The notes under the pieces are model-generated. The model did no database searches. It saw nothing but the letters and a program-made list of their open reading frames with translations, and was not told the DNA's origin. From an uncultured Methanosarcinales archaeon (lineage in GTDB: Archaea > Nanobdellota > Nanobdellia > Woesearchaeales > GW2011-AR9), in the NCBI GenBank assembly GCA_964639875.1, contig CAZXEM010000001.1, forward strand, positions 1 to 60,593: a DNA stretch of 60,593 nucleotides, given 5' to 3'. Within the stretch, counting starts at the first letter, position 1. Each line of letters opens with the position of its first letter. Shown here piece by piece: positions 4,884 to 28,878 of this stretch. The translations under genes and the position numbers were made by a program.

Positions 4884-7175
4884 TTACTTCTTTTTGGTTA
4901 ACCAAATCAAAACAACAACTGCAATTATTAACACAATTATTAAAGCGACCCATTTCCAAGGAAACTTACTTGCTACTTCTTCAGCTTCAGCAACAACTTC
5001 TTCTTCAACAGATGTGTCTTCTTCTGAAACAACTTCTTCTCCACCTTCAGCTGCTTCTTTAACTACTTCTTCTGCAGTTAAAGGTATTGCATCTACTTTC
5101 TCAGCAATTATAAAATAGCTAAATCCAGGCGTTTCTGCTGTATAATGGACGTATGTTCCGTCATCATTACCCATGGTGGTAGATAATTCAATCCATTCCC
5201 CATCTACGTATCGTTGTAAAGCAACATTAGCTTTACCAATCTTATTTTCAGCTAACCAAGTTTTAGTTACTTTAAACTTAATAGTAGGGTTAACTAAGAC
5301 ATCTTCTTTCAAAGCAGAACTTTTAGTGATCTGAATATTCTTGTAAACATCACCACTAAAAGTTTTAACTGAATTTGGGAAACTAGATTTCCTTTCAACT
5401 TTCATCCAAGCCCCGTACGTTTTCTCAGATACACCAAACTCAACAGAAGTTATACCTATTGCCCCGTTGTTAACTTCTAAAACAGTAGTAGTTCCTGGAC
5501 TAAGGGCTGCCCAAGTTTCTTGGGCATATTCTCCAGTTACTTGCGTACTTGAAGAACCACCCCCACCACTTGAAGATGAGCTACTACTTGCAGCTGTAAC
5601 TGTATAACTAGCAGTACCAGTGGCGGTAAGACCGACTGGATCCGTAGCAGTACAAGTTGTTGTCTTTGTTCCAGAGGTAGCAGTTGAATCCCCTGAATAA
5701 GCATAACTTAAAGTTCCACCCATAGCAACAGAATTGTCAGATGCAGAACAAGTACAAAGACGATCAGCTCCAATCGCTACTTCAGTACAACCAACCGCCA
5801 CGCTATATGGTGTCTCGTTATCTACATGTAATGCATAATAATCGTTGTCAACTGCAGTTATCACTGAACCATTATAGGTACAATTAACAGTCCAATTTGT
5901 AGAGACGTTTGTTACTAGACTCTGGTTGTTAGTAATGGTCATTACTGTGTTGTTTAAAGCAGTATTATTCACTCCATTAGCAATGTAATCTCCAGTAGAA
6001 TTTGTAACCCACAATTCACAAGAAACATTATTATCAGTTAAAGTAGTATTAACAAAACCACTTGCGTAACTAAAATTAAAAGAAACGTTTCCAGCGTCAG
6101 TACTATTAGTAAATGTATTGTTAAGAGGAGTTACAACTGTAACCGTAACAACATCAAGGTAAAACTTGTTAGCAAGAGTAGTACCAGAACTTCCAATATT
6201 ACTTGCTAAATCAGTACAATTAACATACCAGAGATGTGTTCCCGCACTTAAACTAGCGTTGGTAGTCCAAGTAGTTGCAGTATCATTTAAGACTGTACTA
6301 TTAACACCATAGCCAGTATCATCAATAAACAGTTCACAGGAAGCATTTGGTGAAAGACCATCTGTAAAACTGTATTCTAAATTAGGCGTAGTATCATCGG
6401 TCCAAGTCCAATTTTGTAATGTAGATGTATCATTTAAACTTACTGTAGGAGCAGTTAAATCAACATAAACCTCTACTGATTCCGCATTCTTATTGTTCAA
6501 AGTATCATTAGCAATCACTTTCAAAGTGTGTAGACCTTCTCCTAATTCCGCAGCAGTATAAGAAATGTTATAGTAATTATTACTCTTAGTTACTAAACCT
6601 TCAACGTAACCATATCCATCATAAGTATTATTACTCAAATTAACATCAGCTACACCAACACCAGAATCAGTAACAGTAACATTAATAATAAACTCTCCGC
6701 CAGAACCAATATAACTATTTGCAGTAGGGGTATTGATAGTTACAGAAGGTTTGGTATTATCAATCTGTACTCCTGTAATCGTACTATTTTCGATATTTAT
6801 ACTGGAACTGTTAGTAGCATTAACAGTTAAATTATAAGTATCATCAGCAAGAAGTATTGCAGTATCAACCGTAGTATTAAAAATAGTTTGGTTTGTAGTA
6901 GAATTCTCAAATGTTACGTTATAAACTAAAGAACCATCCGTCGCATTATAAAAAAAGAAGGTGACGTTAGTAGCGTTACTTTCGTAAGAATTGTTTAACG
7001 TTGCGTTGAGTACAATCTTACCAGAATAATTAGTATCTGCAGTTGGTTCAACTACACTAATACTTTGATCCGCAAATTCTGCAACTATCAAATAAGCAAA
7101 TATTGCAATCACACAAACTAAAAACATCATATAAAATAATTTTTTATCTTTCATCTTCTCAACCTCTTTTTTCAT
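4884..7175 (-). CDS. Large cell-surface (S-layer-like) glycoprotein candidate with C-terminal TM anchor
   Basis: Signal peptide followed by dozens of N-x-S/T sequons in Ig-like repeats. Ser/Gly linker SSSSSSSGGGGSSS, PGF-pre-PGF-like segment ending ...YTAETPGFSYFIIAEK, acidic spacer, then TM plus basic tail WKWVALIIVLIIAVVVLIWLTKKK. Confidence 0.6.
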   Translation of the reverse strand: MKKEVEKMKDKKLFYMMFLVCVIAIFAYLIVAEFADQSISVVEPTADTNYSGKIVLNATLNNSYESNATNVTFFFYNATDGSLVYNVTFENSTTNQTIFNTTVDTAILLADDTYNLTVNATNSSSINIENSTITGVQIDNTKPSVTINTPTANSYIGSGGEFIINVTVTDSGVGVADVNLSNNTYDGYGYVEGLVTKSNNYYNISYTAAELGEGLHTLKVIANDTLNNKNAESVEVYVDLTAPTVSLNDTSTLQNWTWTDDTTPNLEYSFTDGLSPNASCELFIDDTGYGVNSTVLNDTATTWTTNASLSAGTHLWYVNCTDLASNIGSSGTTLANKFYLDVVTVTVVTPLNNTFTNSTDAGNVSFNFSYASGFVNTTLTDNNVSCELWVTNSTGDYIANGVNNTALNNTVMTITNNQSLVTNVSTNWTVNCTYNGSVITAVDNDYYALHVDNETPYSVAVGCTEVAIGADRLCTCSASDNSVAMGGTLSYAYSGDSTATSGTKTTTCTATDPVGLTATGTASYTVTAASSSSSSSGGGGSSSTQVTGEYAQETWAALSPGTTTVLEVNNGAIGITSVEFGVSEKTYGAWMKVERKSSFPNSVKTFSGDVYKNIQITKSSALKEDVLVNPTIKFKVTKTWLAENKIGKANVALQRYVDGEWIELSTTMGNDDGTYVHYTAETPGFSYFIIAEKVDAIPLTAEEVVKEAAEGGEEVVSEEDTSVEEEVVAEAEEVASKFPWKWVALIIVLIIAVVVLIWLTKKK

Positions 7176-14897: not shown

Positions 14898-16139
14898 CTA
14901 TCTAACTTGTTTAATTCTAACTTGTTTATCATTAAGATACTCGTTCTTAATAAAATTGTTAACAAAATCATCTAGCTGAGGATATTTAACTTTAATTTTA
15001 GCAAACAGTTTACCATTTTTAGTAAAAGTATCTTTATTTTTCTTCTTAAAATTTTTAACAAACTCTTTAAGTTTAATTGGCGGACCTTGTCTGAATTCAT
15101 ATTCAGACAATTCATTATTATTTAAAATAAAGTAAATGGTAGCTGTTTTTTTGTGATCCCAATCCCAACCAGATTCTTTAACTCCAAAAACTTCTAATTC
15201 TCTCTTCAAAAACTGAAAACTTTTGAGTAATTTATAACCCATAACATCTTCCTTGTTTTTCTTAACAATTGCTGAGAAAAAAACTAAATGTCCTTTCTTA
15301 GTTTTAGTTTTAAGTTGATCATAACTAATTTCTTCTTTCTCAAACAAACTAACATTCGGATTTTTCAAATACAGTTTAGCTTTCTTTTGAAAAAGTTTAA
15401 ATTTTTCTAAAGACAAAGCGGCAGACGCATTTCTATCCTTATCTACTGGGTCAATAATTATTAACGGAGATTGTAACTTTGACTTGTTCAATTCAAAGAA
15501 AACATTTTTTGTTGGATAATACTTTTCAGGGTCAATAACCTGTTTCAGTTTCCACTTTTGTGATTCTTTTAACAACTTTTGAAAAGAACCATAATAAGCA
15601 ATTAGAATTTCCAATACATAACCTGAGAAGCCAGAAAGATAAGATTCCGCCCCGTAAAGATTATTAGCCCTACAAAATTGTTTAGCTAAACGAATATCGT
15701 CTTTAATTTTCTTTGTATGTTTGTTAACCCATACTGAATGTAATGGCGAGATATCAGTAATATTAAGCGCTTGTTCCATCTTAATAATTTTTAGCACTGG
15801 AACAATTTCAAAAACATAATCCTGATGATTAATTTGAAAATAATCTCTGCTTCCGTGTAACCTTTCAATTTTAATTTTTGGAAAAGATTTCTTAATTGAT
15901 TTTTCTAACAATTCTGATAAAGATGTTGACTGATCTTTATATTTCTGATAATCAAATTGAACAAAAATATCAATATCATGATTACCAGATAACCAAGTAT
16001 CTTTAGCTCCAGAACCGCCAAGAGTGGCTTTTGCATCTTTTAAGTTAGAATTTAATTTTTTAATAAAAGTTGAAACTAATTTTTGCAGTTTATTTTGTTC
16101 TTCTTTGCTTGGTTTAATTTTATTCAATATTTCTTGCAT
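14898..16139 (-). CDS. cca: tRNA CCA-adding enzyme (archaeal class I nucleotidyltransferase)
   Basis: LGGSGAKDTWLSGNHDIDIFV catalytic signature. TATA-like ttaatataaaataag is centred about 26 nt upstream of ATG 16139. Confidence 0.85.
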   Translation of the reverse strand: MQEILNKIKPSKEEQNKLQKLVSTFIKKLNSNLKDAKATLGGSGAKDTWLSGNHDIDIFVQFDYQKYKDQSTSLSELLEKSIKKSFPKIKIERLHGSRDYFQINHQDYVFEIVPVLKIIKMEQALNITDISPLHSVWVNKHTKKIKDDIRLAKQFCRANNLYGAESYLSGFSGYVLEILIAYYGSFQKLLKESQKWKLKQVIDPEKYYPTKNVFFELNKSKLQSPLIIIDPVDKDRNASAALSLEKFKLFQKKAKLYLKNPNVSLFEKEEISYDQLKTKTKKGHLVFFSAIVKKNKEDVMGYKLLKSFQFLKRELEVFGVKESGWDWDHKKTATIYFILNNNELSEYEFRQGPPIKLKEFVKNFKKKNKDTFTKNGKLFAKIKVKYPQLDDFVNNFIKNEYLNDKQVRIKQVR

Positions 16140-17775: not shown

Positions 17776-18174
17776 ATGATGAAGTTCAAATATACGTTAA
17801 AATTCATTTGGGGAATTGTTTTAATTGTAGCTAGTTTACTGTTAGGCCTTCTCACTAAAATTTTCATGATTCTCTACTTAAATAACGAAAATGTTTTTTG
17901 GTCAATGGTCATAATCTATATTTTATCCTGGCCAATGTTAATATGGGGCATTTGGTGGGCTGGTAAAGAATATGCAGAAAGTTTAAGAAAATACTTTCAA
18001 TATAAATATTATCATAACCATATGAAAGTTAAAACTAAGAAAGCTTATCATGCAACTAAAGAAAGAACACAAAAATTGAAAGAAAGAGCTAAAGTTAAAT
18101 CAGCAAAATTAAAAGAAAAGACTAAAGAGAAGACAAGGAAACTAAAAAATAAACTAAAAAATAATCGTCATTAA
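17776..18174 (+). CDS. Membrane protein with Lys-rich C-terminal tail
   Basis: Two TM segments followed by KLKERAKVKSAKLKEKTKEKTRKLKNKLKNN. TATA at 17749-17757. Confidence 0.45.
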   Translation: MMKFKYTLKFIWGIVLIVASLLLGLLTKIFMILYLNNENVFWSMVIIYILSWPMLIWGIWWAGKEYAESLRKYFQYKYYHNHMKVKTKKAYHATKERTQKLKERAKVKSAKLKEKTKEKTRKLKNKLKNNRH

Positions 18175-18221
18175 TTTATATGATTAAGTTCATTGCTAAT
18201 TCTAATTTAAGAAAATAAAAG

Positions 18222-18407
18222 CGCCAACGCCCGGACTTTCAAAAATAGTTCCGCTTTTTCGCAGTGCGTTGAACTTTATGTTCAACTCGCTCTTGCGTTT
18301 CAAATGAGCGTAACCATTTGTTTGAACCGGGAATTCCGAGAGGAACTGGTTATCTCATCCAATTAAGGATTCAAGACCAGCGCAATACCGGATTATGCGA
18401 CGTTGGC
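18222..18407 (-). tRNA. tRNA-Ser(UGA) with two insertions: an 18-nt anticodon-loop intron (about 18352-18369) and an 85-nt insertion in the T-loop (about 18236-18320)
   Basis: Minus strand reads: acceptor GCCAACG/CGTTGGC; D-arm; anticodon stem CTGGT/ACCAG with loop CTTGAA[intron]A; long variable arm TTCC-TCTC-GGAA; T-stem CCCGG/CCGGG enclosing 92 nt instead of 7; discriminator G. Confidence 0.8.
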
Positions 18408-18454
18408 ATTTTTATGACATTAGTCGCGCCCAAAAAGATAAAATCTTTTTCAGG

Positions 18455-18468
18455 ATGCGACGTTGGCA
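18455..18468 (-). repeat. Promoter-proximal direct duplicate of the tRNA-Ser 5-prime end
   Basis: atgcgacgttggca at 18455-18468 is identical to 18395-18408, which covers the first 13 nt of the tRNA plus 1 flanking nt. Period is 60 nt. Confidence 0.7.
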
Positions 18469-28549: not shown

Positions 28550-28755
28550 AGCCCCGGGCGAGACTTTCAGAATGATTCCGCTTGATTCGCAGTGCGTTGG
28601 GTTTTATACCCAACCCGCTCTTGCGTATCAAATGAGCGTAACCATTTGGTTGAACTCGCGACCTCCTGATATCTTGATGTGCTTTGGATTAATTTTGTAA
28701 ACACATCCGATAGAGATTTACAAGTCAGGTGCTATAGCCACTAAGCCACCGGGGC
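28550..28755 (-). tRNA. tRNA-Thr(UGU) with a 48-nt anticodon-loop intron (about 28671-28718) and an 85-nt T-loop insertion (about 28564-28648)
   Basis: Minus strand reads: acceptor GCCCCGG/CCGGGGC; D-arm GCTT-AGTGGCTA-TAGC; anticodon stem CCTGA/TCAGG with loop CTTGTA[intron]A; T-stem GCGAG/CTCGC enclosing 92 nt; discriminator U. A T8 run (28541-28549) follows. Confidence 0.8.
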
Positions 28756-28855
28756 AATACATGCTTGGTAACTTAAGGGGACTAAGAGAGCAACGCGAAC
28801 GCATGTCGCCTGTCTTATCAAATGGGACTCCATTTGCCATCTAAGCTACCGGGGC
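28756..28855 (-). other. tRNA-Thr-like 5-prime fragment (acceptor strand plus D-arm-like sequence) forming the promoter-proximal part of the tRNA-Thr locus
   Basis: TATTGCCCCGGTAGCTTAG at 28841-28859 repeats 28741-28759 with one mismatch (period 100 nt). Next comes the hairpin CAAATGG-AGTCC-CATTTGATA, related to the first hairpin of the T-loop insertion. No anticodon or T arm was found. Confidence 0.4.
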
Positions 28856-28878
28856 AATATCAAGGATTTTATTTACTC

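Follow-up and report, generated by a model that had tools for sequence, protein, structure and literature searches.

A tRNA-Ser(UGA) gene of a Woesearchaeota archaeon with introns in the anticodon loop and T-loop, a T-loop element common to several tRNAs, and an upstream cassette that repeats the tRNA start

Archaeal tRNA introns at bulge-helix-bulge (BHB) motifs occur in D-loops, T-loops, and acceptor stems, as has been reviewed (PMC6379350). Introns at position 59/60 have been published for the DPANN archaeon ARMAN-2 (PMC3239211), and intron families common to several tRNAs are known in Thermoproteales (PMC4090602). DPANN genomes have been described as having incomplete tRNA sets together with unidentified disrupted tRNA genes, and DPANN splicing endonucleases (EndA) of the alpha4 type with an L3 loop have been linked to such disrupted genes (Kaneta et al. 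2018, PMC5829648).

Here we describe a tRNA-Ser(UGA) locus in a genome of this broad kind. The window, that is, the whole stretch of DNA that was analysed (60,593 nt), is contig C1 of an assembly of 1.14 Mb with 31% G+C and 86% completeness, and its source, Woesearchaeota, agrees with the DPANN-like lineage suggested in a preliminary description of the locus. On the minus strand, positions 18407 to 18222 form a class II tRNA-Ser(UGA) gene of three exons and two introns (Table 1). Taken as a whole, the locus is very likely a working gene whose introns would be excised by EndA at BHB motifs. This is also how it had been read before, as a tRNA-Ser(UGA) with one canonical and one non-canonical T-loop BHB intron, and the spliced sequence indeed matches that of intron-less orthologues.

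With ARMAN-2 (PMC3239211), the locus shares its place in DPANN, the intron position 59/60, and a BHB built from the T stem and T-loop nucleotides, at which removal by EndA would be expected. In contrast to that system, the intron is 85 nt long, internally structured, and a member of a family common to several tRNAs, and the genome has a single alpha-type EndA gene where ARMAN-2 has a three-unit epsilon2 enzyme. The likeness to Thermoproteales lies in the presence of several introns per tRNA gene (Sugahara 2008; Fujishima 2010, via PMC4090602, PMC4033280), in near-identical introns at the same position of different tRNAs, and in the interruption of most tRNA genes (PMC4090602, PMC4033280). The present case, however, comes from another phylum (Nanoarchaeota/Woesearchaeota), and its element is also found beside duplicated tRNA ends; extra-intronic copies in such a setting were not found described for Thermoproteales (PMC4090602, PMC4033280). 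BHB introns at 59/60 are already known in DPANN, and the greater novelty lies in the family of elements that target tRNA genes and in the cassettes with duplicated tRNA ends. The preliminary description called a T-loop insertion this long, shared with another tRNA, unusual; an intron at 59/60 is not unusual as such, since such introns are published for ARMAN-2 (PMC3239211) and are present in at least nine tRNAs of this genome.

All four arms of a type II tRNA-Ser, as previously drawn on the minus strand, are present. The acceptor stem is GCCAACG/CGTTGGC with discriminator G, the D stem GCA/TGC, and the anticodon stem CTGGT/ACCAG, which carries the loop CTTGAA+A with anticodon TGA; the variable arm is long (TTCC-tctc-GGAA). 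Within the T stem CCCGG/CCGGG lie 92 nt instead of 7, exactly as had been noted. CCA is not encoded at the 3' end. With the intron-less orthologue of a related genome (L021) as alignment reference and splicing motifs left unused, inserts of 18 nt after nt 37 (18369-18352) and 85 nt after nt 59 (18320-18236) were obtained, which confirms the 18-nt anticodon-loop insert of the preliminary description. The spliced product (83 nt) is identical to this orthologue at 81/83 positions, and the exons by themselves suffice for a full cloverleaf in which the anticodon loop and the T-loop have their usual 7 nt each. Exon 1 is 100% identical in a genome of the same genus (G001), and T tracts like the one listed in Table 1 close the Ser(UGA) orthologues as well.

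The raw locus was called neither by ARAGORN, with and without intron mode, nor by Rfam at the gathering threshold and at E up to 10. After the 85-nt insert was deleted in silico, ARAGORN reported a tRNA-Ser(tga) with an 18-nt intron, given in its output as i(39,18). Weak sub-threshold Rfam matches elsewhere in the window (17953-18025), to snoR128 (C/D box; 20.7 bits, E = 3.5) and to cow-rumen-4, overlap an ORF at 17776-18174 and were judged to be chance.

Table 1. Features of the tRNA-Ser(UGA) locus and the sister element in the window
Feature	Position	Strand	Basis or remark
TATA-like promoter box TTTATAAA	18494..18501	minus	8/8 match; putative promoter role
Copy 1, exact duplicate of nt 1-13, GCCAACGTCGCAT	18455..18467	minus	Exact direct repeat, 60-nt spacing
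Cassette hairpin CCTGAAAAAGAT-TTT-ATCTTTTTGGG plus C	18428..18454	minus	Folds, z = -3.3
Antisense box GCGAC, complementary to nt 7-11 (GTCGC)	18423..18427	minus	Pairs with copy 1 in MFE folds
Spacer of 15 nt, cassette to tRNA	18408..18422	minus	Read from sequence
Exon 1, nt 1-37	18370..18407	minus	Acceptor 5' strand, D arm, anticodon stem 5' strand, loop CTTGAA with TGA; BLAST of the spliced sequence places its positions 1-38 at 18407-18370
Intron 1, 18 nt, canonical position 37/38, TCCTTAATTGGATGAGAT	18352..18369	minus	Motif-free alignment to L021
Exon 2, nt 38-59	18321..18351	minus	Anticodon stem 3' strand, long variable arm, T stem 5' strand, TTCAAA; alignment and BLAST
Intron 2, 85-nt structured element, T-loop 59/60, CAAATGG...TTTGAAAG	18236..18320	minus	Motif-free alignment, BHB scan
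Exon 3, nt 60-73	18222..18235	minus	T60, T stem 3' strand, acceptor 3' strand, discriminator G; alignment and BLAST
T-rich tract TTTTATTTT	18212..18220	minus	Likely archaeal terminator (putative role); read from sequence
Sister 85-nt element, T-loop (59/60) of tRNA-Thr(UGU)	28564..28648	minus	84-87% identity

A strict hBHBh' scan of the pre-tRNA returned the T-loop intron as its top match. The 5-bp T stem forms the outer helix, TTCA (nt 54-57) and TGAA form the central helix, and the bulges are AA↓C (B1) and AG↓T (B2), giving two 3-nt bulges, a 4-bp helix, and a predicted cut after the second base of each bulge. The complementarity between TTCAAA and TTTGAA pointed out in the preliminary description is real, and its relevant part is this 4-bp helix with its two flanking bulges. 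The strict conformer lies only 0.8 kcal/mol above the MFE; the unconstrained MFE contains the T stem, the central helix, the bulge AGU, and a 7-bp inner helix. At B1, a more stable inner helix leaves 1-2 unpaired bases opposite, and the motif is hence not textbook-strict in every conformer. When nine homologous T arms from different tRNAs were given to RNAalifold, the T stem, the central helix H, and B2 were recovered, with covariation in 4/5 T-stem pairs. The pair between nt 57 and the intron (H3') also covaries, with TTCA/TGAA in seven of the arms and TTCG/CGAA in two. A BHB-compatible structure, which the preliminary description had proposed to look for by folding, can thus form at the T-loop junctions, and its helix covaries.

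The 37/38 intron allows only a relaxed BHB to be drawn. Its central helix, CUUG/UGAG, consists of two Watson-Crick and two G.U pairs, its inner helix of 2 bp with one extra base, and the BHB conformer (-8.7 kcal/mol) is 4.3 kcal/mol worse than the MFE (-13.0 kcal/mol). The motif at 59/60 is near-canonical.

Beyond this locus, every candidate BHB intron genome-wide (149,369) was excised in silico and the products were run through ARAGORN. A tRNA across the junction was obtained at only four loci, including the tRNA-Ser(UGA) locus, which shows the junction complementarity here to be more than chance. As single strict-BHB removal yielded these four only, most hidden tRNAs would need relaxed motifs or several removals. 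In the whole assembly, ARAGORN reports 6 tRNAs and Rfam 7 above cut-off, so that most tRNA genes of this genome must be hidden from standard finders. A census by T-arm and acceptor geometry outperformed the single strict-BHB removal and found at least nine tRNAs with 59/60 inserts in the frame TTCRAN↓...NGAA AG↓T. Seven of these are candidates on other contigs (C8, C9, C18, C23, C26, C32, and C83), with inserts of 36-89 nt. The inserts fall into families, pairing Ser with Thr (85 nt), C23 with C83 (88/89 nt), and C9 with C32 (38/37 nt).

We parsed 34 Ser(UGA) orthologues, most of them syntenic beside aCPSF1, which after splicing gave 33 distinct sequences. In these, 99.6% of stem positions are paired and compensatory double changes occur in 11/24 stem pairs. 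The spliced T-loop is TTCAAAT in every orthologue except one (TTCAAGT), and the anticodon loop is CTTGAAA bar two outliers. Inserts recur at three sites (D-loop, 37/38, and 59/60), and in many genomes the aCPSF1-adjacent orthologue is interrupted at the same sites. At 59/60 the inserts span 15 to 92 nt, several being seemingly unrelated by eye, and other orthologues have no insert there. The same-genus genome G001 carries a 51-nt T-loop derivative, a 37/38 intron of 89 nt versus 18 nt here, and no upstream cassette.

No second Ser(UGA) locus was found in the 86%-complete assembly by BLAST with the spliced sequence and a search for the anticodon-arm pattern; the other intact tRNA-Ser(UGA) gene that, in the preliminary description, would have made this copy dispensable is thus not seen in the assembly. 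In long ORFs, UCA accounts for 13.3 of every 1000 codons. Given that no second locus was found and that UCA codons are common, the gene is very probably essential and a pseudogene unlikely. In two other loci, L008 (G014:C50) and L060 (about 5349-5634), a complete tRNA-Ser(UGA) with acceptor GCCGCGG is nested in a second Ser(UGA)-like gene with acceptor GCCATCG. The nested gene is flanked by a 13-bp helix, AGTGAAATCCAAC/GTTGGATTTCACT, and the outer copy is without a proper T arm.

The 85-nt T-loop element has homologues in 15/114 genomes of the family, representing 8/58 genera. Sharing of the insert with tRNA-Thr, already noticed in the preliminary description, is borne out by the twin listed in Table 1: between the Ser and Thr elements, the hairpin changes from GTTGAAC/GTTCAAC to GTTGGGT/ACCCAAC in a compensatory manner, and removal of the sister element yields an ARAGORN tRNA-Thr(tgt). 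In all 13/13 sense-strand cases, excision of the element gave an ARAGORN tRNA across the junction. Its hosts at 59/60 include Ser(UGA), Thr(UGU), Ala(GGC) (in four genomes), Ser(GCU), and Ser(CGA), among others, and in relatives no fewer than five other tRNA species have it in their T-loops. As in a transposed intron family, tRNAs that differ in identity thus share a closely similar intron at one position, and the element has evidently moved between tRNA genes.

Its 5' module, CAAATGGTTACGCNCATTTGATACGCAA, hardly varies, with about 90-93% conservation in different genera and contexts, and its central hairpin shows double changes in 5/7 pairs. The 5' module is also found outside introns, in antisense orientation just downstream of tRNA-Tyr, tRNA-Leu, and tRNA-Phe genes, where the copies are flanked by direct repeats of 20-55 nt that duplicate the 3' part of the tRNA. 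The whole central hairpin is missing from the 51-nt derivative in G001; if that gene is functional, the internal structure of the element would not be needed for splicing and turnover would be fast. No Rfam family matched the element. A reading of the introns as K-turn, box C/D, or H/ACA RNAs was set aside, with no fitting boxes by eye and no Rfam match. Two tRNA-Ala(GGC) T-loop elements (L088 and L090; G069:C11 and G070:C13) are themselves interrupted, with ~60-70 nt of extra sequence inside the loop of their first hairpin, so that one insertion lies inside an intron. The tRNA-Thr(UGU) locus of the window (28550-28860, minus strand) has the same three-part design as the Ser locus, with an upstream copy of its start (see below), a 47/48-nt intron at 37/38, and the sister T-loop element.

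Two other accounts of the inserts bear on the reading of the locus as a working gene. It could be a decaying pseudogene with inserts that are mobile-element debris, while the true Ser(UGA) gene would sit in the 14% of the genome that is missing from the assembly. The 86% completeness of the assembly, the mobile-looking families to which the inserts belong, and the failure of standard tRNA finders to call the gene would all be compatible with this. Decay is, however, hard to reconcile with exons that are 81/83 identical to an intron-less orthologue and keep all stems intact, with a syntenic orthologue near aCPSF1 that is interrupted alike in many genomes while its exons are under compensatory constraint, with a BHB helix that covaries with the T-loop, and with the like interruption of most tRNAs of the genome. 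We consider a pseudogene very improbable. A separate question is whether the 85-nt element is more than a selfish or neutral intron and owes its retention to a role that it plays itself, for instance as an RNA that persists once excised or circularised, or that binds a protein. The conservation of CAAATGGTTACGCNCATTTGATACGCAA at about 90-93% and the compensatory changes that maintain the central hairpin speak for such a role, whereas the derivative in G001 has dispensed with that hairpin, just 15/114 family genomes have the element, Ser orthologues carry unrelated 59/60 introns or none, and the element is without an Rfam match. On balance, a function of this kind appears rather doubtful. The preferred reading remains a working gene with two introns that would be spliced out.

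Upstream of the gene lies a cassette in which, starting from the promoter, a copy of the tRNA start, a hairpin, an antisense box, and a spacer precede the intact gene (Table 1). The repeat is 14 nt long if the preceding T at 18468 is counted. The end of the TTTATAAA box lies 26 nt ahead of copy 1; a spacing of 24-26 nt between box and nt 1 is seen in eleven tRNAs of the genome, and no such TATA-like box stands at 24-26 nt before the real 5' end of Ser(UGA). The transcription unit hence probably starts at 18467, 60 nt upstream of the tRNA. In an MFE fold of the full transcript, the 3' strand of the acceptor pairs with copy 1 and not with the real 5' end.

Among the 34 Ser(UGA) orthologues, roughly one in three has the cassette, and in two of them it is doubled in tandem. 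Throughout the orthologues, copy 1 agrees with the acceptor variant of the gene it precedes, and it is decayed in G002 and L027. The hairpin stems of other lineages are quite different in sequence with pairing kept, and (C)GCGAC is conserved in about a dozen units of other genomes, its complementarity reaching nt 3-11 in some. In other lineages the spacer mostly measures 9-17 nt, and two units exceed this length. Within this genome, no further copy of the cassette hairpin was found. The same arrangement stands ahead of the tRNA-Thr of the window, with a promoter-proximal copy of its nt 1-15, of which nt 6-15 pair with UUAAGUUACC over 10 bp including two G.U pairs. The Thr upstream insert also contains a CAAATGG hairpin resembling that of the T-loop element. 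A module GGCGACATGCGYT(N)CGC..TTAGTCCCC is present in the 37/38 introns of several Ser orthologues (L002/L016, L007, L038, and L042) and likewise in the upstream cassettes of Thr (window about 28790-28830) and of another tRNA (L098). Its presence in both suggests that introns and cassettes share building blocks.

A published description of a self-copy hairpin leader cassette was not found in the literature. In a known system that we compared, the intervening DNA is 1.8 kb long, whereas in the cassette it is 47 nt and without a recombinase gene; the cassette further differs from that system in its conserved hairpin-plus-antisense design, in the possibility of tandem repeats, and in a co-transcription with the tRNA that would be obligatory. 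An integrase-type att remnant (pNOB8/SSV type) was considered and rejected, with 47 nt between the copies, no ORF, and a unit that is unique in the genome. The tRNA genes of Nanoarchaeum equitans are reportedly leaderless. This genome resembles N. equitans in a promoter box at a fixed distance from nt 1 (24-26 nt here), as would be expected for leaderless transcription, and in an RNase P RNA that escapes detection. In contrast, Rpp29 and Pop5 are encoded here, and the Ser and Thr spacing points to the 5'-end duplicate and not to the gene.

For the fate of the cassette, we lean slightly toward a structured 5' leader that would be removed by RNase P. This preference over a third intron rests on folds that are imperfect stem-loops and not BHBs and on the Rpp29 and Pop5 genes; the counterpoints are that RNase P RNA, Rpp30, and HARP went undetected and that copy 1 takes the acceptor strand in the MFE. 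As a third intervening sequence, the cassette would leave a mature tRNA that starts at copy 1, leaderless like those of Nanoarchaeum, and EndA and RtcB would take out the 60 nt that run from the hairpin to the end of copy 2, perhaps by two nested reactions in which GCGA-CU uses copy 2 first and copy 1 next. Such an arrangement would account for the genome-typical TATA spacing of 24-26 nt, which fits copy 1 and not copy 2, for the match of copy 1 to the acceptor variant of the gene in each lineage, and for the acceptor stem formed by copy 1 in the whole-transcript MFE; a 4-bp helix of UCGC/GCGA can be drawn, with AU↓C and CU↓N as its two bulges, and that RNase P RNA, Rpp30, and HARP went undetected also speaks for this reading. 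However, what the folds show instead of BHBs are long, imperfect stem-loops whose internal loops are 2x1 in Ser and 2x2 in Thr, in several lineages the helix continues without a second bulge, and one GCGA cannot pair with both copies simultaneously. Copy 1 is moreover decayed in two lineages, the cassette is absent from the same-genus genome, and two RNase P proteins are encoded. A third intron is hence unlikely in our view, and its nested twin-intron form was downgraded for the imperfect stem-loops and for the lack of a second bulge in Thr and several lineages.

The genome encodes the enzymes that splicing would call for, an endonuclease and an RtcB-type ligase. The one EndA gene found (243 aa, on contig C80 of the assembly G000) is of the alpha type, with N-terminal and catalytic domains (PF02778 and PF01974). 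Among solved structures, the N. equitans alpha subunit is its closest relative, and its alignment with the M. jannaschii enzyme covers the entire length. In classic work, alpha4 EndA enzymes are strict, which counts against the splicing reading, although DPANN enzymes of this type with an L3 loop have been linked to disrupted tRNA genes (Kaneta et al. 2018). RtcB (PF01139) is encoded in a form split across contig ends. About 2 kb from the tRNA gene, a 413-aa ORF (14898-16139) is, read by eye, presumably a class I CCA-adding enzyme. Two RNase P proteins are encoded, Rpp29 (C1:57205-57438) and Pop5 (C68:1942-2238); RNase P RNA (RF00373), Rpp30, and HARP/PIN_5 were not detected in the whole G000 assembly. 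Given Rpp29 and Pop5, RNase P probably exists in this organism.

From this structure and gene content, we infer the following course of events for the preferred reading. Transcription would start about 25 nt downstream of the TATA-like box, with a transcript beginning at the 13-nt self-copy 60 nt upstream of the tRNA; the copy would fold onto the antisense box, and the leader would be taken off by RNase P. EndA would cut the two intervening sequences of the pre-tRNA at BHB motifs. At intron 2, UUCA (nt 54-57) would pair with UGAA near the intron 3' end, with the T stem as outer helix, and cuts in AA↓C and AG↓U would leave the normal T-loop UUCAAAU. RtcB ligase would then join the exons, and the CCA-adding enzyme would complete the 3' end.

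Duplications of tRNA 3' ends are a further feature of these genomes. A second T60, T stem 3' strand, acceptor 3' strand, and discriminator lie 57-90 nt downstream of a complete tRNA in L036, L073, and L078 (downstream of Ser orthologues) and on C20 of G000 (minus strand about 4584/4641, plus strand about 9306/9370). The second copy of L078 is preceded by TGAG-AA, which could serve as the H3' strand and B2 of a 59/60 BHB. As a tentative and rather speculative possibility, a single process could lie behind the 85-nt intron, the 5' self-copy cassette, and the duplicated 3' ends, with small hairpin elements inserting at tRNA genes along with a copy of the terminal exon that they displace. Such an insertion would be tolerated as a leader or trailer or, after loss of the inner exon copy and given a fitting BHB, as a spliceable intron. 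If this is true, archaeal tRNA intron gain would have been caught here at intermediate stages.

In a genome where standard tools find merely 6-7 tRNAs, genes of this type would explain the seemingly missing tRNA sets of DPANN archaea, a gap noted by Kaneta et al. (2018). The locus also offers a clean test substrate, a strict T-loop BHB, for a single-subunit DPANN EndA. Judged by Ser(UGA) in comparison with the same-genus genome G001, intron turnover is very fast, and a mobile intron family together with tRNA-end duplications provides material on how archaeal tRNA introns are gained.
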